Translations under genes and position numbers: made by a program | Assembly: GCA_043779265.1 (NCBI GenBank) | Contig: JAYWEM010000084.1 | Span: 3,768-67,767 of the forward strand | From: a bacterium | Lineage (GTDB): Bacteria > Eisenbacteria > RBG-16-71-46 | DNA length: 64,000 bases | Direction: 5' to 3' | Notes under the pieces: generated by a model | Databases searched by the model: none | What the model was told of the DNA's origin: nothing | Seen by the model: only the letters and a program-made list of their open reading frames with translations | Part shown: positions 1 to 55,900 of the stretch, piece after piece | Layout: every line of letters begins with the position of its first letter | Numbering within the stretch: the stretch's first letter is position 1

Positions 1-1642
1 CGAGGGGCGTGCACCCGACGCGCGCTCCAAGGAGGACGATGCCGCCGAGGCGGCGATGAGCGTGGAGCAGAAGCTCCACTTCCAGATCCTGCACCGCAAA
101 CCCGCCGGCATCGAGGCGCTGGTCGATGAGGCGGTCAAGCGGCAGGACCCGGTCGTCGTGCTCAATACCGTTCTGCTGCCGGCGATGAAGGAAGTCGGCG
201 ACAAGTTCGGCTCCGGCGAGTTGATCCTGCCGTTCGTGCTGCAGAGCGCCGAGGTGATGAAGAAGGCGGTGGCTCAACTCGAGCGCTATCTGGAGAAGAG
301 CGGCGATGTGACCAAGGGCCGCGTGGTGCTCGCCACGGTGTTCGGCGACGTGCACGACATCGGCAAGAACCTGGTCAAGACGATCCTGAGCAACAACGGT
401 TACACCGTCTACGATCTGGGCAAGCAGGTGCCGGTGCAGCGCATCCTCGAGAAGGCGCAGGAGGTCGGGGCCACCGCCATCGGCCTGTCGGCGTTGCTCG
501 TCTCGACGAGCAAGCAGATGCCGATCTGCGTCGGCGAGCTGCATCGCCTGAGTCTCGAGTACCCGCTGCTGATCGGCGGCGCGGCGATCAACCGCAACTT
601 CGGGCGGCGTGCCGCGCTGATCGGCGGCGAGGTTCTGTACGCGCCTGGCGTCTACTACTGCAAGGACGCGTTCGAGGGCCTCGATGTCATGAACGCGCTG
701 ACCGACCCAGTGGAGGCTCCCAAGCTGATCGAGCGTTCCAAGCGCGAGGCGTTCGAGTTCAAGACCAAGTCCGCCGAGTTGGAGCAGCGCGCCGCCGCAT
801 CGAGCGCGCAGCAGAAGGACTTCAAGGTCACGGTCTCGCGCGATGTCACCATCCCGGCGCCGCCGTTCTGGGGCCCGCGCGTCACCACCAGCAAGCAGGT
901 CCCGTTCGCCGGCATGTACGAGGGGATGGACCTGAAGACCCTGTACCGGCTCCACTGGGGCGCTCGTGGCACGGGAGCGCCGTACGATGCGCTCATCGCC
1001 AGCGACTTCGAGCCGCGACGCCTCAAGCTCCAGCACGAGGCCGAGCACAAGGGCTGGCTGCGGCCGATCGCCTCGTACGGCTACTTCCCGTGCCAGAGCG
1101 AGGGCCAGGATCTCGTCGTCTATGACGCGACTGCGTTCCACCCTGGCTCGCTCACACCGCGCGGCAAGATCGAGGAAGTGGCGCGATTCACGTTCCCGCG
1201 TCAGGAGGACCGAGAGGGGCTTTGCCTTTCGGACTACTTCCTGCCGGCGGATGGCTCCAAGTTCGATGTGATCGCGTTCCAGATCGTCACCGTCGGCAGC
1301 GGTGCAGATGAACTGTGCGCTGCGCTCAACGCGCGTGGCGAGTACGCCGACGCGCTGTTCATCCACGGGCTCGCGATGGCCGCCACCGAAGGCCTCGCCG
1401 AGTGGCACCACCGCCACATGCGCGCCGAGCTCGGATTGGGCGCCGACCGCGGCAAGCGCTACTCGTTCGGCTACAGCGCCTGCCCCGATCTGGCCGACCA
1501 GGCCAAGCTGTTCCAGCTGCTGCAGCCCGACACCTCGATCGGCGTGACGCTGACGAGCGCCTTCCAGCTGGTGCCGGAGGCCTCGACGAGCGCGTTGGTC
1601 GTGCACCACCCCGAAGCGCTCTACTACATGGTGCGCGAGTAG
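1..1642 (+). CDS. metH: methionine synthase MetH, C-terminal part (B12-binding and AdoMet-reactivation domains). The 5' end lies beyond the window start; the reading frame is open from position 2.
   Basis: DxHxxG-type cobalamin-binding motif (GDVHDIGKNLV) followed by a Rossmann-like B12 domain and a C-terminal activation domain ending VHHPEALYYMVRE. The frame stays open to the left window edge. Confidence 0.85.
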   Translation, partial: EGRAPDARSKEDDAAEAAMSVEQKLHFQILHRKPAGIEALVDEAVKRQDPVVVLNTVLLPAMKEVGDKFGSGELILPFVLQSAEVMKKAVAQLERYLEKSGDVTKGRVVLATVFGDVHDIGKNLVKTILSNNGYTVYDLGKQVPVQRILEKAQEVGATAIGLSALLVSTSKQMPICVGELHRLSLEYPLLIGGAAINRNFGRRAALIGGEVLYAPGVYYCKDAFEGLDVMNALTDPVEAPKLIERSKREAFEFKTKSAELEQRAAASSAQQKDFKVTVSRDVTIPAPPFWGPRVTTSKQVPFAGMYEGMDLKTLYRLHWGARGTGAPYDALIASDFEPRRLKLQHEAEHKGWLRPIASYGYFPCQSEGQDLVVYDATAFHPGSLTPRGKIEEVARFTFPRQEDREGLCLSDYFLPADGSKFDVIAFQIVTVGSGADELCAALNARGEYADALFIHGLAMAATEGLAEWHHRHMRAELGLGADRGKRYSFGYSACPDLADQAKLFQLLQPDTSIGVTLTSAFQLVPEASTSALVVHHPEALYYMVRE

Positions 1643-1673
1643 CGTTTCGGCGCCGCTGCCAGAGGAGCTCGGG

Positions 1674-2270
1674 ATGCCGGGATTCGACGTGGTGCCGGTC
1701 ACGCTCGAGGGCGAGCACGTTCGCATGGAGCCGCTCGATCTGGCGCGGCATGGCGCCGGGCTCGAGGCGATCGGGCTCGAGCCCTCGCTGTGGGCGTTCA
1801 CGATGAACCAGGTCCGGAGCCTCGGGGACCTGCGCGCCTATCTGCGGACAGCGGTCGATGAACGGCGAGACGGCGTCTCGCTGCCGTTCGCCACGATCCA
1901 TCGCGCGAGCGGCGAGGTCGCCGGGTGCACCCGGTTCGGGAGCATCGTCGTGCCGCACCGGCGCGTCGAGATCGGCTGGACCTGGGTGGGCGCCGCATAC
2001 CGCCGAACCGCCGTCAACACCGAGGCCAAGCGCCTCATGCTCCGTCACGCCTTCGAGGTCTGGGGCGTGAACCGCGTGGAGCTGAAGACCGGCGCGCTCA
2101 ACTGGCCGTCCCGCAATGCGATGACGCGGCTGGGGCTGGTGGAGGAGGGCACGCTGCGCCAACACGTGGTGCAGGACGACGGATCCACGCGCGACAACGT
2201 CTACTTCAGCATCGTGCGCGAGGAATGGCCGGCGATGGACGCACGACTCGCGGCGATGCTCGCGCGCTGA
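1674..2270 (+). CDS. GNAT family N-acetyltransferase
   Basis: 198-aa ORF with an acetyl-CoA binding core (RVEIGWTWVGAAYRRTAVNTEAKRLMLRHAFEVWGVNRVEL), typical of RimJ/RimL-like GNATs. GGAGC lies upstream of the ATG. Confidence 0.8.
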   Translation: MPGFDVVPVTLEGEHVRMEPLDLARHGAGLEAIGLEPSLWAFTMNQVRSLGDLRAYLRTAVDERRDGVSLPFATIHRASGEVAGCTRFGSIVVPHRRVEIGWTWVGAAYRRTAVNTEAKRLMLRHAFEVWGVNRVELKTGALNWPSRNAMTRLGLVEEGTLRQHVVQDDGSTRDNVYFSIVREEWPAMDARLAAMLAR

Positions 2271-2274
2271 TCGC

Positions 2275-5200
2275 TCAGCGACCGGTGGCCACGAACGCGG
2301 CCCAGTAGAACGGATGCGTGCTGCGCTTGGCGTCGCGCCGCGCCGCGAGCACACGCGAGTGCGCGCGGCGGATCGCAGCCGCCGCCTCGGTGACGCCGGC
2401 AGCACGCGCGTCGTAGAGCTCGCGCATCCACTCCCGCGTGGCCGCATCCTCGACGGCCCACAGGCTGGCGATCACCGTGCGCGCACCGCTGAGCTGGAAT
2501 GCGCGCCGCATTCCCAGCGAGCCCTGATGCGGCCATTGCGACGCCATGCCGGCGTGGCACGCGGAGAGCACCACCCAGTCGACGGCGCGCAGGTCGAGCA
2601 GCGAGACCTCCTCGGCCGTGAGCCAGCCATCGGAGTCAGCGACCCCGCGGTCTTCGGCGCCAGCCTCACCGGTGAGCGCCAACAGCACACGACGCCCCAG
2701 CCAAGGCAGCTCGGCCGGCTCCGGCCGCGTCGGCTTTGCCAAGACACCCGGATGCCGCCGTGCTGTCGCGGAGGCCTCGACGCGCGACACGCCTCCCACG
2801 CCGCGCATCCCCACCGAGGGCGTGCGGCAGGTGTCCTCGAGTACGACGCCATGGGTCGCCAGGTGCAGGATCGTGCTGCGGGGCGCCTCGCGACGGAACG
2901 CCATCTCCGAGGCCTGAGCGCCCACCAGTGCCACCGCGTGGCCGCCCCGTTGTGTCCAGGCGAGCGCCAAGTCGGCGACTTCGAGGCGGGCGGACGGCAG
3001 TGACTCGAGCCGAGCACGCGTCACGGGCGTGCAATCGGACGAGCCATCACGCAGGGCCAAGAGCTCCCCGGTTCGCGAGGCGCGAGCGCCTCTCTCGCCG
3101 AACTCGGGATCTCCCAGTGCCAGGAGCTGGCCATCGGATCGAGTCGCTGCCGTGCGCAGACGCTCGCGTTCGGACGAGAGCACGCGAAGGGCCGGTCCGG
3201 ACTCGACGAGGAAGCGCCCCGCGTCGGTGGGAAGAGCGCCCCAGGGCAGGTCCAACACCAGTCCGTCCTCGACGACGTCGATGTGAGTCGTCGGCCCCAG
3301 GGCCGCGACCACCGGGTCCCAGAGCCGCTCGCGCACCGCCATCCCCGCAGCGCGACACGCTCGCTCTGCGCGGGTCCGCCCCTGCGCCGACTGCGCCGGG
3401 CTCGCCTCGAGTTGGTCCCGCCATGCATCGACCAGCGCGCGCAGTTCGGCCGTCGGTCCGAGGTCGATGCAGCGGGGCGTGCGGTCCTCTCCCGTGGCCA
3501 GCAATGCGAGCAGACGCTCGCGGCCTCGCCCGATACTCACGTCCGCGAACGAGACGATGGCTTCATCGGAGGCAAGCGTTCCGAGCACACCCTGCAGGCT
3601 GGCGGCGGTCTCCGGAGCGCTCGCGCGTTCACCGGCGAGCCGGACGTAGCGGCGTTCCTCCTCCTCGGCCGTGACGCGAGCTGCATCGGCGCGCTCGCGC
3701 CAGGCGGCGCCATGCTCGGCGGCGCCCGGGGCCACGATGAGGCGAGCGAGCCGACGTTGCGCCGCTGCCCAGGAGCGATGGGCGTCACGCAGTGCCGGGT
3801 CATCGTCTGTGGGGGTTCGCAGTCGCGCGATCTCGTCCTGGACGGCGCCGCGCCACCCGACGAGCCGGTCCCATGCCGTCGCCAGACGGCCACTCGGTGC
3901 GTCGGCGGCGAGCCAGAGCAGGACATCGAGCGAGCTCGACAGCTGATGCGCGAGCTCGAGTGCGCGGGACTCGGGCATGCCGCGAGCGTCGGAGAGCGCC
4001 TTGATGAGCGCCAGCGAGTCGGTCGTGAACGCGTGCGCCCAAGCGTCCTCCACGAGTCCGACGCGAGCCTCGGCTCGGGCACGCGCCAACTGGACGGACG
4101 AGAACACGTTGTTGCGGCGCAATCCGGTCGAGTCCGCGATGCGCTCGAATGCCATCCCCAGCTCCCGGACTTTCACGGCCTGTCCCGTGACCTCCGACAG
4201 TTCGAAGAGCCCCCGCACGAGCTCCGCCCGGATCGTGCCGCGTTCATCTTGAGTATGCGAGGCGCGTTCGAGAGCGAGCTCGAGATCCGTGCGCGCCGCA
4301 TCAGGCTGCGCCCTTCCGGCGCGGATACCGGCGTGCACATGTCGGATGAACAGCAGGTTCGAGTCGTGGCGAATCGAATCGGCCATCGCGAGCCGGCGCG
4401 CCTCCTCGAGGAGCAGGAGCGCACCCGTTGTGTCCCCGATCATGCTGCGTGCCTCGGCGCGGTAGATCGTGTTGTTGACGGCGAGGAAGTGGTCCGGTCC
4501 GAGATTCCGGCTCAGCAATGCGACGGCACGCGCGAACTCGCGTTCGGCCGCACGCCAGTCGCTGACGAGCGCCAGCCGCAAGCCGAGCAGTGCGTGCAGC
4601 CGCCCGACGGCGAGCGTCGAGTCGCCCTCGGCGCGCCGAGTCAGCTCGAGCGCGCGTTGAGCGAAATCGACGGATTCACTCAGGTCCCCGAGGTTGCGCG
4701 CCAGGATCGAGAGGCTGCGGTAGAGAGGACCCAGAGTCCGCGCATGCGCGATCGGATCGCCCTCGAGGATCTGCCGCGCCTCGTGAAGTGCGGCCAGCGC
4801 GCTGTCGTAATCGGCCGCGGCTGTTGCGGCCACACCCAGGTCGGTGAGCATCTCGCCGACGCGCTGCAGGTTCCCGGGACGCGTCCGGTCGAGCATGCTG
4901 GCACCGGCTCGCATGCCATGCATCGCGGGCGACCACTGACGAAGCATCGCCTGTGCGCGACCCCGCAGGAAGGCGCACTCGCCGCGCAGCGAGTCGTCGT
5001 GGATCGCACGCGGCTCGAGCCCGGCGAGCATGAGGAGCGCGCTGTCGGGCTGTCCCCATCCGATTCGCAGGGCGGCGCCGATCAGACGCATGCGGGCAGC
5101 GGTGCTGGCCTGCCCAGGCAGGCGATCATGGAGTTCCGCTGCGATTCGCACGCTCGCGATCGCTGCATCGCGGCGCGGTGTGCGCCCCGTCCACGCGATT

Positions 5201-5451
5201 TCGGCACGTTCCCTGTGCACTCTGGCCAGCAGCGCGGTGTCGCGGCTGGCCAGCGATGCGAGGTGCGCGAGCAGGTCGCGCGCAAGGCTGTCCGCGAGCA
5301 CGAGCTGACGAGCCTCTCGCGCTGCACGGATCTGGCCGAGATCCGGGTCAGCTGCACTCCCACGCGGCGCGAGTAGAAGAAGCCCCATCACGGCCATCAA
5401 AGCGAATCGGACACACGTGGTGCGGCGGTGTGTGCTCCCCGCCCGGGTCAT
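2275..5451 (-). CDS. secreted TPR-repeat protein with a C-terminal CHAT (caspase-like) domain
   Basis: The ORF is open up to 6384, but I place the start at the ATG at 5449-5451, which overlaps the kinase stop (ATGA). That start gives an N-terminal signal peptide (MTRAGSTHRRTTCVRFALMAVMGLLLLAPRGSAADP). The middle is a long helical, TPR-like region. The C-terminus has the CHAT signature (His/Cys dyad context VLSACHAG, ending PFYWAAFVATGR). Confidence 0.75.
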   Translation of the reverse strand: MTRAGSTHRRTTCVRFALMAVMGLLLLAPRGSAADPDLGQIRAAREARQLVLADSLARDLLAHLASLASRDTALLARVHRERAEIAWTGRTPRRDAAIASVRIAAELHDRLPGQASTAARMRLIGAALRIGWGQPDSALLMLAGLEPRAIHDDSLRGECAFLRGRAQAMLRQWSPAMHGMRAGASMLDRTRPGNLQRVGEMLTDLGVAATAAADYDSALAALHEARQILEGDPIAHARTLGPLYRSLSILARNLGDLSESVDFAQRALELTRRAEGDSTLAVGRLHALLGLRLALVSDWRAAEREFARAVALLSRNLGPDHFLAVNNTIYRAEARSMIGDTTGALLLLEEARRLAMADSIRHDSNLLFIRHVHAGIRAGRAQPDAARTDLELALERASHTQDERGTIRAELVRGLFELSEVTGQAVKVRELGMAFERIADSTGLRRNNVFSSVQLARARAEARVGLVEDAWAHAFTTDSLALIKALSDARGMPESRALELAHQLSSSLDVLLWLAADAPSGRLATAWDRLVGWRGAVQDEIARLRTPTDDDPALRDAHRSWAAAQRRLARLIVAPGAAEHGAAWRERADAARVTAEEEERRYVRLAGERASAPETAASLQGVLGTLASDEAIVSFADVSIGRGRERLLALLATGEDRTPRCIDLGPTAELRALVDAWRDQLEASPAQSAQGRTRAERACRAAGMAVRERLWDPVVAALGPTTHIDVVEDGLVLDLPWGALPTDAGRFLVESGPALRVLSSERERLRTAATRSDGQLLALGDPEFGERGARASRTGELLALRDGSSDCTPVTRARLESLPSARLEVADLALAWTQRGGHAVALVGAQASEMAFRREAPRSTILHLATHGVVLEDTCRTPSVGMRGVGGVSRVEASATARRHPGVLAKPTRPEPAELPWLGRRVLLALTGEAGAEDRGVADSDGWLTAEEVSLLDLRAVDWVVLSACHAGMASQWPHQGSLGMRRAFQLSGARTVIASLWAVEDAATREWMRELYDARAAGVTEAAAAIRRAHSRVLAARRDAKRSTHPFYWAAFVATGR

Positions 5452-7175
5452 CGCACTGGATTCTCCAAGGTCACCTGTCGCACCCACACGCCGCGGACAT
5501 CGCGTTCGCGGCCGGCGAGCGAGTGGAAGCGGTCGAACGTCCCGGCGCGCTGCGGTGCGGCATCGGAGGGCACGGCGCTCACGCCGCCGACTCCACGCAG
5601 ACGCTCGACCGACGCGGCCGGGATCATGGCGTAGCGAGGCGCGCGGCCGGGCGTGGGCGCGGGCAGGCGCGCCAGCTCGGCCTCCAGCTCCGAGACGGGT
5701 TCGAGGCTGGCGATCACCAGGAAGTGCTCGCGTCCGCCGCGGCTCGTGACGGTCCAGGCACTCACGTCGCCGCCCATGGTGCCGGGGAGCAGGAGCGTGG
5801 TGTCGGCGGGCAGCGGATTCTGCAGCTCGAAGAGCGGCTGCGGGAAGAGCAGATAGGACTCGCCCCGCTCGTCTTCGTTGAGCAAGTAGACATGCGCCGG
5901 ACGAGTGGCGCGGAACTCGAGCGCCAGCTGGTCGCCGGGTCCGACACGATCTCCCGTCGAGAGGCGCGCGCGCTGGCCGTCGTTGCGGCGGACGATCGAG
6001 GCTTCGAGGTCGAACGTCGGCAGGGCAGTGGACACCGAGGTGGCCGCGGGAATCGGCGCCGGGGCCTTGGCGGGCTGTCGCAGCACGAGCCAGCCCGCGA
6101 ACACCATGGCGGCTGCGGCCGCGACGGTGAGCAGCATGCGCACTGGCGAAGGCTCGACGCGAGGTGGCACGAGCGCCATCTCGAGCGCGGTGCCCATCTC
6201 CTCGGCGTTGGCGAAGCGCGCCTCGGGCGAAGCGGCCATCGCGCACTCGATCGTGGCGATGAGCCCGGCGGGGAGGTCGGGGCGTTCCTCGTGCAGCGAG
6301 CGCTTGGCGCCCGCGCTCGATTGCTCGCGCAGTTCTCCCATCGTCCGCGCGGTGAACGGCGGCCTGCCGGTGAGCGCGCACCACAAAGTGACGCCGAGCG
6401 CGTACAGGTCGGAGCGCGTCGTGGCCGATTCGCCCGAGAGCCGCTCCGGTGCCATGAACATGGGTGTGCCCGAGATGCGGAGCGGGTCATCGTCCTGGAG
6501 TGCGCGTCGCTGCCCGAGTCCGAAATCGGTGAGCACGACACGATGCTCCTCGGTGAGCACGACGTTCGCGGGCTTGATGTCGCGGTGCAGCAGGCCGCCG
6601 GCGTGCACGGCCGTGAGTGCGCGCGAGATCGCGACGCCGATGCGCACGACCTCGGCGGCGGGGAGCGGTCCCATGCGCTCGATCCGCTGCGCCAGATCCT
6701 CGCCACGGAGGAACTCCATCCACAGGCCGATCTGGCCCGCCTCCTCGCCGATTCCGTACACGCTCACCACCTCGGGGTGCCGGAGCCGAGCGAGCGCGCG
6801 AGCCTCCTCGAGGAGGGGATGGTCATTCCCCGCGAGTCCGGGGCGCATCAGCTTGAGCGCCACCTCGCGCTCGAGCGTGGGATCCCACGCTCGATACACC
6901 TCGCCGCTCGCGCCCGCGCCGACCTGTTCGAGCAGGAGCAGCGAACCCCAGCGTCGAGTCCCGGCTGCGGCCGCCGCCAAGGGCGACTTCGAGCCCGATG
7001 GGCTCCGTTGCAGCGCGCGATTGAACTCGACGATGCGGGCCACGTCACGAAGCGCATCGATCTGCGAGCGCTCGAGTGTGCTGCCCGGACGTTCGCTCTC
7101 GGCCTGCCAATCGACCGCGAGGCCCTCGGACACCGAGCTGAGAAGCGTGTCGAGCGGATCGTCAGGTGCGCTCAT
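5448..7175 (-). CDS. membrane Ser/Thr protein kinase with a C-terminal extracytoplasmic domain
   Basis: Hanks-type kinase motifs: glycine loop GAGASGEVY, VALK, HRDIKPANVVL and DFG. A transmembrane helix (LLTVAAAAAMVFAGWLVL) is followed by an extracytoplasmic domain of roughly 200 aa. The start overlaps the 3' end of the upstream sigma gene by 14 bp. Confidence 0.85.
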   Translation of the reverse strand: MSAPDDPLDTLLSSVSEGLAVDWQAESERPGSTLERSQIDALRDVARIVEFNRALQRSPSGSKSPLAAAAAGTRRWGSLLLLEQVGAGASGEVYRAWDPTLEREVALKLMRPGLAGNDHPLLEEARALARLRHPEVVSVYGIGEEAGQIGLWMEFLRGEDLAQRIERMGPLPAAEVVRIGVAISRALTAVHAGGLLHRDIKPANVVLTEEHRVVLTDFGLGQRRALQDDDPLRISGTPMFMAPERLSGESATTRSDLYALGVTLWCALTGRPPFTARTMGELREQSSAGAKRSLHEERPDLPAGLIATIECAMAASPEARFANAEEMGTALEMALVPPRVEPSPVRMLLTVAAAAAMVFAGWLVLRQPAKAPAPIPAATSVSTALPTFDLEASIVRRNDGQRARLSTGDRVGPGDQLALEFRATRPAHVYLLNEDERGESYLLFPQPLFELQNPLPADTTLLLPGTMGGDVSAWTVTSRGGREHFLVIASLEPVSELEAELARLPAPTPGRAPRYAMIPAASVERLRGVGGVSAVPSDAAPQRAGTFDRFHSLAGRERDVRGVWVRQVTLENPVR

Positions 7176-7797
7176 GTCCCATCTCCTCGGCGAGGCGCCG
7201 GAGCGCTCGCTTCACGGCCATCCGTACCGCGTCCCGGCTCGACCGCTCGGTCATGGCGGCGATCTCACCGTGGTCGTAGTCCAACTCGATGTGCAGGTGC
7301 AGCAGTTCGCGGTCTTCGGCGCTGAGTGTCTGCATCGCGCGCTCGTAGCGATCGACCACGTCGGACCCGATGGCGTCCTCGAGCGGGGACGGGGAGGGGT
7401 CGTGCAGATCCTCGGGAAGGCCGTCGGGCCCGGGCCGCCGATTCGCGTAGCGCACCTGGTCGCGGATCCGATTGAGCACCGCCTGGCGCACATAGGCCTG
7501 GAACCCGCCCGGCCCGCGCACCTCGATGCGATCGAGTCCCTGCACCGTCCGCATCAGGGTCTCCTGCACGAGGTCGTGTGTGTCGAGCAGTGAGCGGGCG
7601 CGCGACGGCAGCCGCCCGCTCGCCCAGCGCTGGAGGCGGGGGAGGTAGCGTGCCATGAGCGACTCGAGCGCCCGCGCATCGCCGGACTTGGCGCGCTGGA
7701 GCAGGTCGGTCGTGATGAGCAGGTCGTCCTCGGGTGAGCCCGAGGAGGGATCAGCGGGCAACAGGGCACCTCGAAGTGAGTCGGGTTCGAATCCCAC
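7162..7797 (-). CDS. ECF-type RNA polymerase sigma factor
   Basis: Sigma-70 region 2 (DLVQETLMRTVQGLDRI ... YVRQAVLNRIRD) and a region-4 HTH. It is the first gene of the sigma / kinase / CHAT operon. Confidence 0.8.
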   Translation of the reverse strand: MGFEPDSLRGALLPADPSSGSPEDDLLITTDLLQRAKSGDARALESLMARYLPRLQRWASGRLPSRARSLLDTHDLVQETLMRTVQGLDRIEVRGPGGFQAYVRQAVLNRIRDQVRYANRRPGPDGLPEDLHDPSPSPLEDAIGSDVVDRYERAMQTLSAEDRELLHLHIELDYDHGEIAAMTERSSRDAVRMAVKRALRRLAEEMGHERT

Positions 7798-8932: not shown

Positions 8933-11671
8933 TCAAGCGTCGCGCGGGTCGATCACGTCCGTCTCGATCCCGTACTCGCGGATCGCCTTGGCCACGACCG
9001 CCGCCTTCACCTTGCCGTCCTGCTGCAGCGCATGCAGCGTCGCGACGACCATGTGCTCGGCGTCGATCTCGAAGTGACGGCGCAGCGCCTCGCGCGTGTC
9101 GCTGCGACCGAACCCATCGGTGCCGAGCGCGACGAAACGATTGGGGATCCAGCGCGCCGGCATGTCGTTGACGGACTTCATCCAATCACTGGTCACGATG
9201 ACCGGACCCTCGGCCCCCTCGAGCGCCTGCGTCACGTAGGGCACGCGCGGCTTCTCGGTCGGGTGCAGACGATTCCAGCGCTCCGCACTCAGCGCATCGG
9301 TTCGCAGCAGTGAGTGGCTCGTGACGCTCCACACATCGGCCGCGACGCCCCACTTCTCGCCGAGCATCTCCTGCGCCCGCAGCGCCTGCAGCAGGATCGG
9401 GCCGCTGCCCCAGAGCTGCGCCTTGAGCGCGTGCTTGCCCTCGGCCACGCGGTAGCGATAGAGCCCCTTCAGGATGCCCGCTTCGACACCCTCCGGGCGC
9501 TTGGGCTGCGCGTAGTCCTGATTGTAGAGCGCCAAGTAGTAGAAGATGTCCTCGTTGTCGACGTACATGCGACGAAGACCATCCTGCACGATCGTCGCGA
9601 GCTCGAAGGCGAATGCCGGATCGTACGAGACGCAGTTCGGCACGGCCGAGGAGAGCAGCAGGCTGTGGCCATCCTCGTGCTGCAGGCCCTCGCCATTGAG
9701 CGTCGTGCGACCGGCAGTGGCGCCCAACAGGAAGCCGCGACCGCGCGCATCGCCGAACGCCCAGATCAGATCCATGGTCCGCTGGAAGCCGAACATCGAG
9801 TAGAAGATGTAGAACGGGATCGTCGTCTGGCCGTGGGTCGAGTAGCTCGTGCCCGCGGCGGTGAACGACGCCATCGAGCCCGACTCGGTGATGCCCTCTT
9901 CGAGCAACTGACCGTCGGCCTTCTCGGTGTAGGACAGCACCACCTTGGAGTCGACCGGCTCGTAGCGCTGGCCGAATGGAGCGTAGATCCCGATCTCGCG
10001 GAACAGCACTTCCAGGCCGAACGTGCGTGCCTCGTCGGGGATGATCGGCACGACGCGCTTGCCGTAATCGGCGTCTCGCAGCAGGTTGCGGAGCAGCTTG
10101 CCGAACACCATCGTGGTCGAGACCAACTGCTTCTCGCTGGTGCCGCCGTCGAACTCGGTGAACAGCTTGGCGGGCGCCTCGGGCATGGACTTCGTGCGCA
10201 CCACGCGCTTGGGGATGCTGCCGCCGAGTGCCTTGCGGCGCTCGAGCAGGTAGCGCACCTCGGGGCTGTCCGCACCCGGATGGAAGAACGGCGCGTGGTC
10301 GAGGTCGCGATCGGCGATCGGCAGCTCCAGGCGATCGCGGAACGTGCGCAGTTCCTCGAGGTCCAGCTTCTTCTTCTGGTGCGTCATGTTGCGCGCCTCG
10401 GAGGCGGAGCCGAGCGTCCAGCCCTTGACGGTCTTGGCGAGCACCACCGAGGGGCGGCCCTGTGTCGCAGTGGCCGCCGCGTAGGCGGCGTACACCTTGC
10501 GGTAGTCGTGGCCGCCGCGGCGCAGGTGCTTGATCTGATCGTCGCTCATCGACTCGACCATCTTGACGAGGCTCGGGTCGCGGCCGAACAGGTGCTCTCG
10601 GATGTAGGCGCCGGACTCGACGACGTACTTCTGCCACTCGCCATCGACGGTCTCGTTCATCGCGTCCACCAGGGCGCCGTCGTAGTCGCGCGCCAGCAGT
10701 GTGTCCCACTCGCGCGCCCACACGACCTTGATCACGTTCCAGCCGGCACCGGTGAACAGCGCCTCCATCTCCTGGATGATCTTGCCGTTGCCGCGCACCG
10801 GGCCGTCGAGTCGCTGCAGGTTGCAGTTGATGACGAACGTGAGGTTGTCGAGCCCCTCGCGCGCCGCGACCGTGAGTGCGCCCTGCGCCTCGACCTCGTC
10901 CATCTCGCCGTCGCCGAGGAAGGCCCACACGCGCGAACCCGAGGTGTCGGCGATGCCGCGAGCCGAGAGGTAGCGGTTGTAGCGCGCCTGATAGATGGCG
11001 TTGATGGGGCCGAGTCCCATCGAGACGGTGGGGAACTCCCAGAAGTCCGGCATCAGGCGCGGGTGCGGATAGCTCGAGAGCCCGACCCCGCGCGATTCGC
11101 GGCGGAAGTTGTCGAGTTGCGCCTCGGTCAGGCGCCCCTCGAGGAACGCGCGTGAATAGATGCCGGGGGCGGCATGGCCCTGGAAGAAGATCTGGTCGCC
11201 CGAGCTGCCATCGTCCTTGCCACGGAAGAAGTGGTTGAAGCCCACCTCATAGAGGCTGGCAGCCGACGCATAGGTGGAGAGGTGTCCGCCGAGCCCCGCG
11301 TCGCGATGATTGGCACGGATCACCATGACCGCCGCGTTCCAGCGGATGATGCGGCGGATGCGGAGCTCCATCGCCTCGTCGCCCGGGAACTCCGGCTCCT
11401 GCTCGGGCGAGATGGTGTTGATGTAGCGCGACTGCACCAGCCCCGGCAGCCCGACCTGCAACTGACGGGCGCGCTTGAGCACGCGGCGCAGCAGCCAGTC
11501 GGCGCGCTCGGGTCCCTGCGACTCGACCACGCCGTCCAGCGCGTCCAGCCACTCCTGCGTTTCGGTCTCATCGCCGTCCGGGAGGTGACGCTTGAACCCC
11601 GCGAGCAGGTTCAGGTGATAGCGCTCGGTCTCTCGCCGATCGCTCATGGGAGGCGGGTCCTTGAGGCTCAT
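8933..11671 (-). CDS. aceE: pyruvate dehydrogenase E1 component (homodimeric type)
   Basis: Strong E1 signature (HLSTYASAASLYEVGFNHFF ... GHAAPGIYSRAFLEGRL). I place the start at MSLKDPPPMSDRRETERYH, preceded by AAGGA. The longer ORF running to 12133 is low-complexity and not E1-like. Confidence 0.85.
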   Translation of the reverse strand: MSLKDPPPMSDRRETERYHLNLLAGFKRHLPDGDETETQEWLDALDGVVESQGPERADWLLRRVLKRARQLQVGLPGLVQSRYINTISPEQEPEFPGDEAMELRIRRIIRWNAAVMVIRANHRDAGLGGHLSTYASAASLYEVGFNHFFRGKDDGSSGDQIFFQGHAAPGIYSRAFLEGRLTEAQLDNFRRESRGVGLSSYPHPRLMPDFWEFPTVSMGLGPINAIYQARYNRYLSARGIADTSGSRVWAFLGDGEMDEVEAQGALTVAAREGLDNLTFVINCNLQRLDGPVRGNGKIIQEMEALFTGAGWNVIKVVWAREWDTLLARDYDGALVDAMNETVDGEWQKYVVESGAYIREHLFGRDPSLVKMVESMSDDQIKHLRRGGHDYRKVYAAYAAATATQGRPSVVLAKTVKGWTLGSASEARNMTHQKKKLDLEELRTFRDRLELPIADRDLDHAPFFHPGADSPEVRYLLERRKALGGSIPKRVVRTKSMPEAPAKLFTEFDGGTSEKQLVSTTMVFGKLLRNLLRDADYGKRVVPIIPDEARTFGLEVLFREIGIYAPFGQRYEPVDSKVVLSYTEKADGQLLEEGITESGSMASFTAAGTSYSTHGQTTIPFYIFYSMFGFQRTMDLIWAFGDARGRGFLLGATAGRTTLNGEGLQHEDGHSLLLSSAVPNCVSYDPAFAFELATIVQDGLRRMYVDNEDIFYYLALYNQDYAQPKRPEGVEAGILKGLYRYRVAEGKHALKAQLWGSGPILLQALRAQEMLGEKWGVAADVWSVTSHSLLRTDALSAERWNRLHPTEKPRVPYVTQALEGAEGPVIVTSDWMKSVNDMPARWIPNRFVALGTDGFGRSDTREALRRHFEIDAEHMVVATLHALQQDGKVKAAVVAKAIREYGIETDVIDPRDA

Positions 11672-11860
11672 TTCGTGGGTGTCCTTTCGAAACGGCCGAA
11701 GTCGCGGCCGGAGCTGCGGGCGAAGCCGCCGCGGGAGGTCGCGCGGCTTGTGCCCGGGCGGGTGCAAGCGGGCCTGATGGCGGTTCCCTGATCGTCCGGC
11801 AGGATAGCGCCCGCGCGAGAGCGGGGCCAAACGCCCGGGGCCCCTTCTGGCCGCATCCGT

Positions 11861-12032
11861 CGCGATTGCTTTGACCTGCGCGTCTCGTCGTGGTGGCCTG
11901 TCGTCTCCGTCGACCCCCTTGCTGCTCCCCGGAGGCCCCGATGCCCGTCTCTTCGCCCGCACACACCGTCGTCCACCCGGCCCGCAAGGGTCCTCGCCCG
12001 ATGGCCGCTGGGCGCTCGTGGCGGTTGGTGAG
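11861..12032 (+). repeat. degenerate direct-repeat copy of the S9 peptidase promoter and 5' coding end (compare 14098-14310)
   Basis: The core is about 87% identical to the start of the peptidase gene (ATGCCCGTCTC(T/A)TCGCCCGCACACACCGTC...CGCAAGGG) and carries a 54-bp internal deletion. It encodes the remnant MPVSSPAHTVVHPARKGPRPMAAGRSWRLVSSR*. Confidence 0.7.
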
Positions 12033-12138
12033 CTCGCGATGAACGGCGAAGAGCGCACTGGGCGCGGGCTCGGCCGGATCCGACACTGGCTCCTCGCTCT
12101 CCGGCGAGCTGGTCGGCCGATCGCGCTGCTCATCCTCG

Positions 12139-14058
12139 GTGTGTTCGGCGCTCAGTTCGCTCAGGCGCAGTCCGTGGCTCCTTTCGAACGAGTGTGGGGG
12201 GGGCGATACGGGCCTGCGCGTGTTCAGCGCGTACTCCGTGGCGAGCCATGGGATCGTGGGCGACGGACAGGGCGGAGCCTATGTGGCCGCGAGCCTCTAT
12301 GAGCCCAGCCTCGCGGATTCGCCCTTCGTCACGCGGATCCTTCGCGTCGATGCCCAGGGAAACCCGCATAGCGGTTGGCCTGCGGGAGGACTCGTGCTCC
12401 ACCGGAACGAGTCGTACGCCCCCTGGTTCGACCAACTGATCATCAGGCGCTCCCAGAATGGGAGCCTCTCCGTGAACGGCACGAAGCGCAGACACGGACA
12501 AGATCGGCTGGAGGCGATGGTGGTGGAGGATCCGGCGCCTCGAGTTGCCTGGGCGTCGTTCGATCGGAGACCCACTCAGCGGTTCGATCGCAGATTCGTA
12601 CCCACGCCGAGTGGCGATTGGTGGTCGCTCACCTTCGAATTCGACTCGCTCACCGTGCGACTGCGCAGGCCCAACGGCTCACCCGCACCGGGCTGGCCTG
12701 CGAGTGGTGTCTGCATCGACCGCGCCAGCCCCTCCGGAGTCACTCGCGAAGTCACCAGTCATTGGGAACCGCGAGTACTTCCCGACGGACGGATCGGGAT
12801 CCTCTATGAGAGCCTGGAGTATCCGCCCGGCCCGAGCGTGAGAAAGCTCCATTTGGTGAGGATCAGCCCATCCGGCGCAGCTATCGAACGCGATTCGTTG
12901 CCTCTCACGCCTTGGTTGGGCCGGCTCCGATCATGGACCACCGACGAGGTCGGGAGACCACTGCTCACATGGTCCGATATGAACAATCTGCAGGCTACCG
13001 GTCTCCAATGGGACGGTGCACGGCGTTGGTCCGATGCGCTGTACCCCGACTCGAGCTTCAACCTCTCGCTCGAGGCCTTCGCTGCTCCTGACGGAAACGG
13101 CGGGGCCTACATCGCTCACACCACCGAGGCTCCCTCGGAGTGGCTGTCGCAACTCCGATTGCTCCATCGGCAGGACGACGGCACGCTCGCTGTGGGCATC
13201 TATGCGCTCACTCCGATTCCCGGGACCACTCCCTTCGTAAGCAGTGCCTTCCGAGTCTGGGGGGACGCGCTGGGCCGCGCGGTGCTTTGTCTGCATTGCG
13301 ATGGAGAGAGCTCATTCGGGGCGCGCGGGGCGCCCCGGTTGCTGATCGTGGATTCGGACGGTCAGTTCGCCGGCTCCGATCCGGAGGGCACCAAGGTGTT
13401 CCCTGTGGGCTTCTACAGCTCGTTCCGTCTTGAGTCCGATTCCAATGGGGATGTGTTCGCGTCCTGCCTCGAGTTGGATGCAAGTGGCACGGCGAGGCAT
13501 GTGATCGCGCAGCGCATGCACGCCGACCAACCGGTGGCGACGCTCGCCTCGCGCGTCTCGGGCGGGCGCGTTCGTGGCGGGGTTGAGCTGACGTGGCAAC
13601 TGAGCGGCGACGCCGCGACCGTGGCGCTCGTCGAGCGCAGCGTGGGCGACATGCCGTACGAGGCGTTCGCGTCACTGGCGCCGGATGGCGACGGGCGTGT
13701 ACGCGTGCTCGACCTCGCTGCGCCGAGCGAGGCCCGCTTGCGCTACCGACTGTCGGTCGCGGGGCTGGTGCTCGACATCTGGGAGCTGACAGCGCACAGC
13801 CCGCCGGGGTTGTCGTTGGCACTCGGGCGCACCACTGACGGCGAGGTGGCCGCGCGGATCACGCTCGAGGGCGTTGGCGATGCCCGGCTCGACGTGTTCG
13901 ACGTGGCGGGACGACTCCAGCGCAGCGAGGACCTGAGCGACCGAGGCGCCGGCACACATGAGTTGGCGCTCCCCGGAGCCGGCCCGCCCGGGCTGCGGCT
14001 CGTGCGGCTGCGAGAGGGCGGAGCGCAGCGGGTCGTGCGGTACGCGAGCCTGCGCTGA
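12139..14058 (+). CDS. secreted protein with a T9SS / FlgD-Ig-like C-terminal domain; the N-terminal signal peptide is in another frame (apparent +1 frameshift at a G8 tract)
   Basis: The body ORF (frame 1) ends with LDVFDVAGRLQR...GAGTHELALPGAGPPGLRLVRLREGG..VVRYASL, typical of T9SS/FlgD-like C-terminal domains. A signal peptide ORF in frame 0 (ATG 12039; MNGEERTGRGLGRIRHWLLALRRAGRPIALLILGVFGAQFAQAQS) runs into the G8 run at 12196-12203. Removing one G fuses the two frames. Confidence 0.6.
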   Translation: MCSALSSLRRSPWLLSNECGGGDTGLRVFSAYSVASHGIVGDGQGGAYVAASLYEPSLADSPFVTRILRVDAQGNPHSGWPAGGLVLHRNESYAPWFDQLIIRRSQNGSLSVNGTKRRHGQDRLEAMVVEDPAPRVAWASFDRRPTQRFDRRFVPTPSGDWWSLTFEFDSLTVRLRRPNGSPAPGWPASGVCIDRASPSGVTREVTSHWEPRVLPDGRIGILYESLEYPPGPSVRKLHLVRISPSGAAIERDSLPLTPWLGRLRSWTTDEVGRPLLTWSDMNNLQATGLQWDGARRWSDALYPDSSFNLSLEAFAAPDGNGGAYIAHTTEAPSEWLSQLRLLHRQDDGTLAVGIYALTPIPGTTPFVSSAFRVWGDALGRAVLCLHCDGESSFGARGAPRLLIVDSDGQFAGSDPEGTKVFPVGFYSSFRLESDSNGDVFASCLELDASGTARHVIAQRMHADQPVATLASRVSGGRVRGGVELTWQLSGDAATVALVERSVGDMPYEAFASLAPDGDGRVRVLDLAAPSEARLRYRLSVAGLVLDIWELTAHSPPGLSLALGRTTDGEVAARITLEGVGDARLDVFDVAGRLQRSEDLSDRGAGTHELALPGAGPPGLRLVRLREGGAQRVVRYASLR

Positions 14059-14167
14059 ACGGTCGGCGTGGCGTTCCCCCGCACCCGTCACGAAGCGGTT
14101 GACCGCGGCGCCTGCGCATGGTGGCCTCCGGTGCCACTTCGCGCTCTACAAGCTCCCGGAGGCTCTA

Positions 14168-16174
14168 ATGCCCGTCTCATCGCCCGCACACACCGTCATC
14201 CACCCGGCTCGCAAGGGCCCCCGCCCCATGACCGCCGAGGATCTCTGGGACCTGCCGCGCGTCGGCTCGCCGCAGCCCTCGCCCGATGGTCGCTGGGCGC
14301 TCGTTCCGGTGGCGCACACCGACCTCGAGAAGAACGAGTCGCGCAACACGCTGTTCCTGGTCACGCTCGATGGCACCGCGGAGCCTCGCGCGCTCACCTC
14401 GCCCGAGCTGTCGGCCTCGGGCCCTCGCTGGGCTCCCGATGGGCGCCGCTTCACATTCCTCCGTAAGGACGCCGACTCGCGGATGCAGTTGCATCTGCTG
14501 TCGCTCGATGGCGGCGAGCCGCGCGTCCTGACGACGCTGCCACTCGGCGTCTCCGATGCGCTGTGGCTGCCGGACGGCAAGGGGCTGATCCTCGCGGCGC
14601 AGTTGATCAAGGGGCACCTGACGCCCGAGGCGACGCTCGCCGAGCGCGACCGCCGCGCCAAGGACCCGGTCAAGGCGCACGTCACCGAGGACCGCTTCTA
14701 TCGCTACTGGGACACGTGGATCGACACGGGCGAGGTGATGCATCTGTTCCACCTCGAGCTTGCGAGTGGTGCGGTGCGCGACCTGATCCCGGACTCGGAG
14801 CTGTGGTTCGAGTGGATGGACCCGACGGGGCAGTTCGACATCAGCCCCGATGGCGCCGAGGTGGCGTTCACGGGCACGTGGTTCGATGACGCGCGCTCGC
14901 TCATCGTCACTTCCGTGTTCACCGTGCCGATCACCGGCGGCACGCCGGCACGGCTCGTCCCGCCGCACACCGCCGACGACTTCCGCCCGCGCTATTCTCC
15001 GGACGGCACTCAGATCGTCTACGGACGCACGCTCGACCCGCTGTTCTACGCCGACCCGCCGCAGCTCATGCGCTACGAGCGTGCGAGCCGCCAGCACTTC
15101 ATGATCGTGACCGATTGGGACTTCTCGCCGACCGGTTGGGAGTTCAGCGACGACGGCTCGCTGGTGTTCGTGGCCGAGCAGCATGCGCGCGTGAAGTTGT
15201 TCGCCTGGAACGGCAAGGGCGAGCCGCAGGTGGTGGTCGGCGAGGGTGCGGTCAGCGGGATGTCGCCGGTCCGAGGCGGTCGGCTCGTCTACGCGCATCA
15301 GACGAACGCCTCGCCCACCGAGATCGAGGTGTGCGCCAAGGACGGCTCGAAGCGCCAGCGCATCACCCACTTCACCGACGCGGTCGTCGCGCGCTACGGG
15401 ACCGGCGAGGTGCGCGAGATGCTGTTCGAGGGCGCCGACGGCGAGACCGTTCAGATGCTCGTCGTGCTTCCTCCGGGCGCGGACGGCAGCCAGCCGCTGC
15501 CGCTGGTGCACATGATCCACGGCGGCCCGCACGGCATCTTCGGCGACCAGTGGCATGCGAGATGGAACCCGCATCTGTTCGCGGCGCCCGGTTACGTGGC
15601 GGCGATGGTCAACTTCCAGGGCTCGACGTCGTGGGGGAAGGACTTCGCCAAGCGCATCCAGGGCGAGTGGGCGAGGCGGCCGCACGAGGATGTGATGAAC
15701 GCGACCGACGTGCTGATCGCCGCGGGTATCGCCGATCCCGAGCGCATGGCAGCCACCGGTGGCAGCTACGGTGGCTACATGGCGACCTGGATCGCCGGCC
15801 ACACGGACCGCTTCAAGTGCATCATCTGCCACGCGGGCGTGAACGACCTGACCGGCCAGTACGCGAGCGACGTCACACAGGGGCGTGGCCAAGCGGCGGG
15901 CGGCGAGGCGTGGGACGGTCTCGAAGCGCAGGATCGCTGGTCGCCGATCCGCTATGCGAGCGCCATGAACACGCCGATGCTGGTGATCCACGGCGAGCGC
16001 GACTACCGCGTGCCGGTGGGGCAGGGACTGCTGCTCTACGGGATGCTCAAGGCCAAGGGCGTGCCCGCGAGGCTCGTGTACTTCCCGGACGAGAACCACT
16101 GGATCCTCAAGCCGAAGAACTCGCTCCTGTGGTGCGGCGAAGTGCAGAGCTGGTTGGGTCGCTGGCTCGGCTGA
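14168..16174 (+). CDS. S9 family serine peptidase (prolyl oligopeptidase / acylaminoacyl-peptidase-like) with an N-terminal beta-propeller
   Basis: Catalytic GGSYGGYM nucleophile motif and C-terminal Asp and His regions (IHGERDYRVP, ENHW). An alternative start is MTAEDL at 14228. The ORF-track start at 13958 overlaps the upstream gene and is rejected. Confidence 0.85.
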   Translation: MPVSSPAHTVIHPARKGPRPMTAEDLWDLPRVGSPQPSPDGRWALVPVAHTDLEKNESRNTLFLVTLDGTAEPRALTSPELSASGPRWAPDGRRFTFLRKDADSRMQLHLLSLDGGEPRVLTTLPLGVSDALWLPDGKGLILAAQLIKGHLTPEATLAERDRRAKDPVKAHVTEDRFYRYWDTWIDTGEVMHLFHLELASGAVRDLIPDSELWFEWMDPTGQFDISPDGAEVAFTGTWFDDARSLIVTSVFTVPITGGTPARLVPPHTADDFRPRYSPDGTQIVYGRTLDPLFYADPPQLMRYERASRQHFMIVTDWDFSPTGWEFSDDGSLVFVAEQHARVKLFAWNGKGEPQVVVGEGAVSGMSPVRGGRLVYAHQTNASPTEIEVCAKDGSKRQRITHFTDAVVARYGTGEVREMLFEGADGETVQMLVVLPPGADGSQPLPLVHMIHGGPHGIFGDQWHARWNPHLFAAPGYVAAMVNFQGSTSWGKDFAKRIQGEWARRPHEDVMNATDVLIAAGIADPERMAATGGSYGGYMATWIAGHTDRFKCIICHAGVNDLTGQYASDVTQGRGQAAGGEAWDGLEAQDRWSPIRYASAMNTPMLVIHGERDYRVPVGQGLLLYGMLKAKGVPARLVYFPDENHWILKPKNSLLWCGEVQSWLGRWLG

Positions 16175-16245: not shown

Positions 16246-16587
16246 ATGCCCCTGTCCGAGAAGCTGCTGCGCCTGCTCGCGGAGTGTGATGTCGAGACCT
16301 ATCGCGCCTCCGGGCCGGGCGGTCAGCATCGCAACAAGACCGAGTCGGCGGTGCGGTTGCGGCACAGGCCCTCGGGTCTGACCCGCATCGGGACCGAGGA
16401 GCGCTCGCAGCTGCGGAACAAGCAGCGGGCGCTCGAGCGCCTTCATGCCGCGCTCGAAGCCGCCAAGCGCAAGAAGAAGAAGCGCATCGCCACGAAGCCC
16501 ACGCGCTCGTCGCAGCTCGACCGCATGGACAGCAAGACGCGCCGGTCCAAGGTGAAGCGCCTGCGGAGTACGAGCTCCGACGACTGA
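16246..16587 (+). CDS. arfB: alternative ribosome-rescue factor ArfB (peptidyl-tRNA hydrolase, YaeJ family)
   Basis: GGQ motif ([16 protein letters not shown]) and a basic C-terminal tail ([12 protein letters not shown]...RRSKVKRLR). Confidence 0.85.
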
Positions 16588-32070: not shown

Positions 32071-32146
<76 letters not shown>

Positions 32147-53475: not shown

Positions 53476-53483
53476 GAGACCGC

Positions 53484-55892: not shown

Positions 55893-55900
55893 GAGACCCC

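Follow-up and report, generated by a model that had tools for sequence, protein, structure and literature searches.

Positions 12039-14058 on the forward strand of the window, by which we mean the whole 64-kb stretch of DNA analysed, hold one secreted-protein gene that is split between two reading frames at a run of eight G residues (G8). Frame 0 is opened by the ATG at 12039 (MNGEERTGRGLGRIRHWLLALRRAGRPIALLILGVFGAQFAQAQSVAPFERVWGG...) and encodes the start codon and signal peptide at 12039-12167 (+ strand), which were recognised by inspection and by alignment to the signal peptides of the orthologues, where this segment is conserved. The signal peptide displays an arginine-rich n-region, the h-region IALLILGVFGAQF and A-Q-A, with predicted cleavage ahead of QS. 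The first mature residues, QSVAPFERVW, are also in frame 0 (12168-12197, + strand), and the orthologues keep APF.R.W. The G8 run, GGGGGGGG, lies at 12196-12203 (+ strand), 10 codons past the predicted signal-peptidase cleavage site. Frame 0 then continues for 97 nt beyond the run before translation ends at a TGA (12300-12302, + strand), and its product in the sequence as given is 87 aa. In frame +1 no stop occurs between 12043 and the terminating codon at 14056-14058; its first start codon is GTG 12139, which defines a 639-codon ORF with its stop at 14058. Deleting one G joins the two frames through ...FERVWGGDTGLRVF... into a continuous 672-aa product, and the frame is kept with a run of G7 (TGG GGG GGC, encoding W-G-G) or G10 and lost with G8. 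The initial annotation had described the same run coordinates, signal-peptide frame, long ORF and effect of a one-G deletion, and all of these hold. Once the signal peptide is removed, the gene product is a Sec-exported protein of ~650 aa.

The two frames cross within the run itself, as had been claimed. Codon statistics upstream of G8 favour frame 0 (+0.12 vs -0.14 and -0.54 for the other two frames), and those downstream favour frame +1 (+0.24 vs -0.41 and -0.60). We identified two orthologues, 59% and 41% identical to the protein, and each is a single ORF through the site equivalent to G8. When the protein of the closer one, L001, is compared with the whole window, its residues 9-31 match frame 0 at 12129-12197 (52% identity, E 0.02) and its residues 33-653 match frame +1 at 12205-14055 (60% identity), confining the frame shift to 12198-12204. 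L001 has TGG AGC GAC at the site and no tract, and the orthologue L002 has TGG GGG GAC with a G6 run; both come from species different from that of the window. A homopolymer count found that G8 is the only run of at least seven bases across the 64-kb window, the next longest being ten G6 runs, among them 13259-13264 and 26397-26402, and three C6 runs. Since the sole run of this length is also where homology switches frame, with codon statistics in agreement, the frame change at the junction is not a coincidence.

We also considered whether the body of the protein might have a start of its own at GTG 12139 or GTG 12220. Both were rejected: the products would have no export signal, and the orthologues do not start there. 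The body past the shift comprises 617 codons and is without the start that supplies the export signal. It is fully open and keeps the family-invariant residues. An independent start in frame +1, which the initial annotation had raised for the orthologues, is present in neither of them; signal peptide and body share one frame in both. A further candidate, the extra Gly of W-G-G-D relative to W-S-D and W-G-D in the orthologues, was dismissed as a sign of tract expansion because distant relatives have W-x-P-D with equal spacing.

The repaired 672-aa protein consists of the signal peptide, a β-propeller, an FN3-like domain and a divergent T9SS-type C-terminal domain. The AlphaFold2 model of the body is all-β (pLDDT 80, pTM 0.67), and a Foldseek search with it returned matches to propeller domains. 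Model and search together place the β-propeller at 12205-13524 (frame +1, + strand) and, with an alignment to residues 475-560 of the relative P0003, an FN3/Ig-like β-sandwich domain at 13546-13794 (frame +1, + strand). The remaining segment, 13813-14058 (+ strand, including the stop codon), resembles a T9SS type A domain by profile homology: hhalign of the window C-terminal-domain profile against the C-terminal domains of P0003-P0009 gave a probability of 98% (E 1.5e-13), and BLASTP of the window protein against P0003 residues 475-651 gave E 5e-16. The relatives P0003, P0004 and P0009 pass the TIGR04183 cut-off. The T9SS-type assignment made in the initial annotation stands through this homology to relatives, but Pfam and NCBIfam searches gave no direct match of the window protein's C-terminal domain to TIGR04183 or PF18962. 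Pfam returned for this domain only FlgD_ig below threshold (E 0.02, 15.3 bits vs a cut-off of 27), and NCBIfam at E up to 1 returned nothing for the window protein, P0001 or P0002.

The protein thus resembles T9SS type A cargo in having an N-terminal Sec signal peptide (by inspection), a propeller and FN3-like passenger, and a C-terminal β-sandwich of ~80 aa that is profile-homologous to domains passing TIGR04183. It differs in that this protein and its two orthologues fall below the thresholds of those families and have no PNP motif in the C-terminal domain. No T9SS component was found among the window proteins scanned against Pfam and NCBIfam, which represent part of the genes in the 64-kb window. 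The family, which combines a signal peptide, propeller and FN3-like domain with a divergent T9SS-like tail, has not been characterised and corresponds to no curated family.

In this uncultured soil bacterium, a relative of Candidatus Eisenbacteria, the gene lies between two intact neighbours. Divergent from it and upstream is aceE (pyruvate dehydrogenase E1; 8933-11671, - strand, from translation), which anchors synteny and taxonomy: the nearest relatives of AceE are from Candidatus Eisenbacteria MAGs (79% and 75% identity), and over its N-terminal 289 aa the identity to the L001 neighbour gene is 94%. Downstream is an S9 prolyl-oligopeptidase-family gene (14168-16174, + strand; Pfam Peptidase_S9, E 1.2e-53) whose product is 78.5% identical to that of the downstream gene in L001. 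While these flanking genes are 94% and 78.5% identical to their L001 counterparts, the split gene is only 59% identical, indicating fast evolution, and its GC3 is 0.78 vs ~0.85 in neighbouring genes. The two closest Candidatus Eisenbacteria MAG loci, L008 and L009, have no orthologue beside aceE. We found no second copy of the species: the best match in the protein search was the 59% one, a profile scan of genome contigs gave no match, and in metagenome contigs the scan picked up just five remote matches, all to the C-terminal domain. Searching for AceE as an exact sequence, from either of two alternative starts, likewise gave no match.

Just upstream of the split gene is a 180-nt lineage-specific duplicate, which forms a uORF overlapping the start codon. 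This copy A (11845-12025, + strand; detected by blastn, alignment and repeat analysis) is a diverged direct repeat that covers the upstream region of the S9 peptidase gene together with its RBS, ATG and first codons. The functional upstream region and 5' end of that gene constitute copy B (14073-14310, + strand; repeat alignment). Against the S9 5' region, copy A is 87% identical over 85 nt (E 2e-24) and 96% over 28 nt by blastn; it retains TTGACC, GGAGG and ATG and has a 41-nt internal deletion. The direct repeat families D1 and D2 have a spacing of 2227 nt. By blastn, the duplicate is absent from the orthologous locus L001, and the 5' region of the gene has been rearranged recently. The uORF made by the duplicate has 33 codons (MPVSSPAHTVVHPARKGPRPMAAGRSWRLVSSR*; 11941-12042, + strand, read from the sequence), and its TGA overlaps the ATG of the gene (cgATGAac), an arrangement in which the two may be translationally coupled. 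A promoter and terminator scan of 11600-14300 gave no useful result.

The rest of the window is clean. No other gene is frameshifted in its ~57 kb of coding sequence, ~50 genes are intact, and Pfam domains are covered end to end in AspRS, HisRS, ClpB, S9 and MacB-type permeases. No frame is broken at any of the 13 G6/C6 or 55 G5/C5 runs. Codon scores computed in six frames pointed to possible frameshifts on the same strand at 28.5-30.8 kb and 45.4-47.9 kb, and these proved to be separate genes, namely ATGA-coupled membrane proteins and a set encoding an ECF sigma, an anti-sigma and a DUF4097 protein. With no other frameshift in the window, the assembly is not generally error-prone.

Nor is the length of the run beyond what chance would give. 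A first-order Markov model predicts ~1.3 G and 0.8 C runs of at least eight bases in 64 kb, and one was observed; the excess over base composition that typifies contingency tracts is thus not seen in the 64 kb tested. GGG makes up 19.5% of Gly codons, and 6/32 W-G pairs use it. In a genome of 68% GC, there is nothing unusual in W-G-G being encoded as the in-frame G7. The window contains neither a paralogue of the gene nor a second long tract.

We favour, with a probability of about 45%, a recent and real +1 G slippage allele as the explanation of G8, a figure whose division between real allele and artefact rests on rough prior rates and not on data from the locus, which is represented by a single consensus sequence. 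The W-G-G codons TGG GGG GGC form a seven-G run, and the eighth G carried by the window produces the +1 shift. The extra G would be real DNA, inserted by unprogrammed replication slippage at the most slippage-prone site of the region; the dominant genotype in the sequenced population would carry it, and a further slip could restore the frame. On this view the run would be a by-product of codon choice and not a switching tract under maintenance, and the outcome would be a null allele or an early pseudogene. G8 is implicated causally because it is the sole homopolymer of at least seven bases in 64 kb, and with no damage elsewhere in the gene the insertion must have happened recently. Slippage is also in keeping with a type of gene that is often lost or silenced, as seen in its absence beside aceE in L008 and L009, its fast evolution, its GC3 and its rearranged 5' region. 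Against it, an error of base calling or consensus would leave the very same picture, an otherwise intact gene with a one-base lesion at the longest homopolymer.

Such an error is nearly as probable, and likewise short of an even chance. The organism would carry G7 (or G10, under-called by two) and an intact gene, the extra G having entered at consensus calling. The window's single frameshift coincides with its single homopolymer of at least seven bases, and the remainder of the gene is undamaged and conserved, with the start codon, uORF overlap and signal peptide intact. The public genomes of related Eisenbacteria include nanopore-era MAGs with very long contigs (894 kb in L009), data of a type in keeping with the present contig of at least 64 kb. 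Homopolymer indels are a known residual error of long-read assemblies and cause frameshifts; read-level accuracy is uneven and consensus accuracy falls at run lengths of 8-9, C/G runs above all, and polishing is needed for bins with less than ~40x coverage (PMC9262707). A one-base length error at the longest run that splits an intact gene resembles these indels in nanopore and PacBio assemblies, but the same study found that most runs shorter than 11 are resolved correctly at the consensus level (PMC9262707). Long-read assemblies of this kind usually show several broken genes, whereas the window shows only this one. Its many shorter runs without a further frameshift exclude a generally homopolymer-prone assembly and argue against a platform with general homopolymer errors, and the artefact reading is weakened by this clean remaining coding sequence. 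Short-read consensus errors at a G8 are rare. We consider it very improbable that G8 is genomic and that programmed +1 ribosomal frameshifting or RNA-polymerase slippage on the run yields the full-length protein. In favour of this reading, slipping forward by one base within GGG GGG leaves a tRNA-Gly perfectly paired; the run is followed in the zero frame by CGA, a minor codon that accounts for 11% of Arg codons here; and the run of G is similar to a Shine-Dalgarno sequence, a feature shared with prfB. The likeness to prfB-type frameshifting extends to the requirement for a +1 shift at a G-rich, Shine-Dalgarno-like site; unlike in prfB, the shift is not conserved in the orthologues, both single ORFs with no need of a frameshift, and the shift site lacks an in-frame stop or any other defined stimulator. 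Rfam at the gathering threshold found only a tRNA-Lys at 32071-32146, and no recoding signal or RNA family at G8. Transcriptional slippage is known to be efficient chiefly on A/T runs of at least 9. A peptide spanning FERVWGGDTGLR, if present with a genomic G8, would point to recoding.

That the poly-G tract has been kept because slipped-strand one-G changes toggle the exported protein, with the window capturing the OFF state, we regard as unlikely. The layout is the classical one, with a poly-G tract in the 5' coding part just past the signal peptide of a fast-evolving exported protein gene. The tract is placed so that unit changes switch the reading frame, as at a contingency locus, with the frame restored by one step (to G7) or two steps (to G10). 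The G6 of L002 at the same codons is a further point in favour, yet composition predicts tracts as long and as frequent as this one, the usual codon choice for W-G-G accounts for it, the closest orthologue lacks it, and the window contains no paralogues or other long tract. The poly-G/poly-C contingency loci of Neisseria, Haemophilus and Campylobacter undergo slipped-strand phase variation. They share with this locus a 5' coding G tract in a gene for an exported protein, where one-G changes toggle between the full-length product and early termination. Tracts in those genera are over-represented, recur across families of surface genes and vary in length between cells or strains, whereas here there is one tract of chance length, absent from the closest orthologue and known from one consensus sequence. 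A precedent in another high-GC bacterium is the glpK 7C run of M. tuberculosis, likewise a coding run of 7-8 G/C of ordinary appearance in which a +1 insertion is a reversible null allele; there, recurrence and reversion were shown across thousands of isolates and experimentally, whereas here we have a single consensus sequence from an uncultured bacterium (10.1101/717272, PMC6667613, PMC10334774). Our literature search found no report linking T9SS cargo with homopolymeric phase variation. It is improbable that the run is a working phase switch of a T9SS-type propeller protein in Eisenbacteria with the recently duplicated promoter and uORF leader as part of a rapid re-wiring of its expression. 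If true, homopolymer contingency loci would also occur in a free-living, high-GC member of the FCB group and would include T9SS cargo genes, a combination of which we found no report.

Recent unselected slippage is at least as likely as either of the two options offered by the initial annotation, a contingency site or a sequencing error. That proposal was right that the gene is split at G8, but the contingency features we tested were not found, and this third reading was omitted. For annotation, 12039-14058 should be treated as one gene, either with a frameshift or in need of correction by one base, and not as a 639-aa protein that lacks a signal peptide. The biological stakes are modest. If the reads hold no mixture of G7 and G8, the locus would be a routine pseudogene or consensus error; if the two lengths are mixed, it would rank among the rare cases in which a secreted protein of an uncultured soil phylum is switched by a homopolymer.

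The split secreted β-propeller protein gene (12039-14058, + strand) changes frame at a run of eight G residues at 12196-12203 (...GAACGAGTGTGGGGGGGGCGATAC...), and the positions that the initial annotation gave for the run, the ATG and the two frames all agree with our re-reading of the sequence. Frame 0, opened by the ATG at 12039, encodes MNGEERTGRGLGRIRHWLLALRRAGRPIALLILGVFGAQFAQAQSVAPFERVWGG and then continues out of frame until a TGA at 12300-12302. Frame +1 stays open between 12043 and its stop codon at 14056-14058, with GTG 12139 as its earliest start codon (639 codons), and no start codon in this body frame of the window gives an export signal. Removal of one G produces GTG TGG GGG GGC GAT ACG (V-W-G-G-D-T) and a 672-aa single reading frame, bearing out the proposal that a one-base deletion would yield a continuous secreted protein.

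A protein search with the repaired protein found two full-length relatives, P0001 (59% identical) and P0002 (41%), and the same architecture in eight further, more distant proteins of ~660 aa. The genes for the two orthologues, at loci L001 and L002, encode signal peptide and body in one frame: the true start in L001 is ATG 1196, with the N-terminus MTRIGAVALVLGCVFAPASQAQ/PLAPFQRMWSDSGVRVF, and P0002 begins with MEARAWRAWRVVSCRFLLALVGVVSATRVRGEVALAPHTPMWGDGVQL. An independent frame +1 start in the orthologues, which the initial annotation had named among the findings that would refute its reading, is found in neither locus. When the L001 protein was searched against the window with tblastn, it matched as two colinear segments: in frame 0, residues 9-31 correspond to 12129-12197 at 52% identity (LVLGCVFAPASQAQPLAPFQRMW against LILGVFGAQFAQAQSVAPFERVW; E 0.02 for a search of the entire window), and in frame +1, residues 33-653 correspond to 12205-14055 at 60% identity. 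As the first segment ends at 12197 and the second resumes at 12205, the indel lies within 12198-12204, that is, in the run. Codon statistics favor frame 0 upstream of the run (+0.12 versus -0.14 and -0.54) and frame +1 downstream of it (+0.24 versus -0.41 and -0.60). We conclude with high confidence that this is a single gene, interrupted by a one-base length change of a coding G run through slippage there.

The G8 run is by itself not unusual for the composition of the window: a first-order Markov model (68% GC) predicts ~1.3 G runs and ~0.8 C runs of at least 8 bases, and one is seen. It is the only homopolymer of at least 7 bases in the 64 kb, followed by ten G6 and three C6 runs, and independent evidence places the shift inside it; chance falls far short of explaining why the frame should change exactly at this run.

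Elsewhere, ~50 genes occupy 89% of the window. When codon scores were scanned in all six frames, a few frame changes on the same strand stood out, and all of them turned out to reflect separate genes (an ECF sigma/anti-sigma/DUF4097 set and ATGA-coupled membrane proteins). None of the 13 G6/C6 runs or 55 G5/C5 runs in the window disrupts a frame, and AspRS, HisRS, ClpB, the S9 peptidase, three MacB-type permeases, a CHAT protein and others match their Pfam profiles over the full length, so homopolymer errors are not a general feature of this assembly. The sole break coincides with the sole long run.

The gene lies between aceE (8933-11671, - strand) and an S9 prolyl-oligopeptidase-family gene (14168-16174), an order kept in L001. 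Identity between the window and L001 is 94% for the AceE N-terminus and 78.5% for the S9 gene but 59% for the gene itself (12039-14058 versus 1196-3157), which indicates fast evolution or relaxed constraint; its GC3 is 0.78, versus ~0.85 in neighboring genes. The nearest AceE homologs in a one-genome-per-species GTDB set are from two Candidatus Eisenbacteria MAGs (79% and 75% identity), and neither locus has a copy of the gene next to aceE, so the gene is restricted to a narrow lineage. The window contains no paralog of it.

The 180 nt directly upstream of the start codon (copy A, 11845-12025) duplicate, in diverged form and direct orientation, the segment 14073-14310 (copy B), which contains the S9 gene upstream region, its GGAGG ribosome-binding site, ATG and first codons. 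The copies share 87% identity over 85 nt (E 2e-24) and 96% over 28 nt, two blocks separated by a 41-nt deletion, and form a direct repeat that flanks the gene at a spacing of 2227 nt. Copy A retains TTGACC, GGAGG and ATG and forms a 33-codon uORF (11941-12042) whose TGA overlaps the ATG of the gene as ATGA; it would now supply the promoter and translational coupling. The duplicate is absent from the orthologous locus in L001 and is therefore lineage-specific and recent, which shows a recent remodeling of the gene's 5′ end. L001 carries an unrelated 18-codon uORF (1143-1199) that has a strong GGAGGG site and likewise overlaps the gene start as ATGA, and the two arrangements suggest that translational coupling to a leader uORF may recur in the gene family.

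Other loci were also observed. Directly 3′ of the S9 peptidase gene, 16246-16587 encodes a 113-aa protein with an RF-1 domain (ArfB-like peptidyl-tRNA hydrolase). An intact HlyD-type membrane-fusion gene (48913-50244) lies upstream of three intact tandem MacB_PCD + FtsX permease genes (51031-58321, ~805 aa each). A large TPR + CHAT-domain protein (2278-5448, - strand, ~1057 aa), an adjoining Ser/Thr kinase with DUF4384 (5451-7175, - strand) and an ECF sigma factor (7165-7761) that adjoins this group could be a signaling or defense-like module.

What caused the length change is less certain than its position. We slightly prefer a real, recent, unselected +1 G allele (probability roughly 0.45): the rest of the assembly is clean, most platforms seldom make consensus errors at runs of 8 (PMC9262707), and a gene that is accessory, evolves fast and carries a G7 run is a likely target of inactivation. 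The same cleanliness and rarity count against a sequencing or assembly artefact, which nonetheless follows close behind as a credible explanation, because read-level long-read accuracy drops at C/G runs of 8-9, bins at low coverage require polishing (PMC9262707), and single-base damage to a gene has the appearance of an error. The protein, genome and metagenome collections searched contained no further assembly of the same species for comparison.

An evolved phase switch is possible, though we consider it improbable. The initial annotation read the run as either a contingency site or an error, and the split does fall at the run in a layout like that of contingency loci, directly behind the signal-peptide codons of a gene whose product is exported and evolves fast; nothing besides this layout speaks for a switch. 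The tract shows no excess in the 64 kb, no clear conservation in the two orthologues and no family of tract-bearing genes in the window: the orthologous site is TGG AGC GAC, with no run, in L001 and TGG GGG GAC (G6) in L002, and with GGG accounting for 19.5% of Gly codons in the window and used in 6 of 32 W-G pairs, TGG-GGG-GGC (G7) is an unremarkable codon outcome. Among high-GC organisms, the best precedent comes from M. tuberculosis glpK and its 7C run (10.1101/717272; PMC6667613; PMC10334774), and our literature search found no report joining T9SS cargo to homopolymeric phase variation. Programmed recoding is very unlikely, since the L001 and L002 genes are already in a single frame and have no need for a frameshift. 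The frameshift is of a known kind, and its interest is modest unless reads show tract-length heterogeneity.

The secreted-protein gene itself is uncharacterized. Neither its product nor the two orthologs significantly match Pfam or NCBIfam; the sole match, FlgD_ig (E 0.02), is under the cut-off. From a 10-sequence alignment, AlphaFold2 models the 617-aa body as all-β (pLDDT 80, pTM 0.67), with a predicted propeller at body residues ~1-440 followed by two β-sandwich domains (448-530 and 537-615), and Foldseek against the PDB matched it to propellers (acylaminoacyl peptidase, PLL lectin, SorCS2) and FN3 arrays. The initial annotation assigned the protein a T9SS-type C-terminal domain. This domain (13813-14055) and those of P0001 and P0002 fall below the TIGR04183 and PF18962 thresholds and lack the PNP motif, but homology links the last 90 residues to the C-terminal domains of the more distant relatives P0003-P0009 (hhalign probability 98%, E 1.5e-13), of which P0003, P0004 and P0009 pass the cut-off of TIGR04183 (T9SS type A sorting domain). 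By profile homology, the domain would at best be a divergent T9SS-type member, and in Eisenbacteria-like genomes current models may overlook a sorting-domain variant that diverges in this way.
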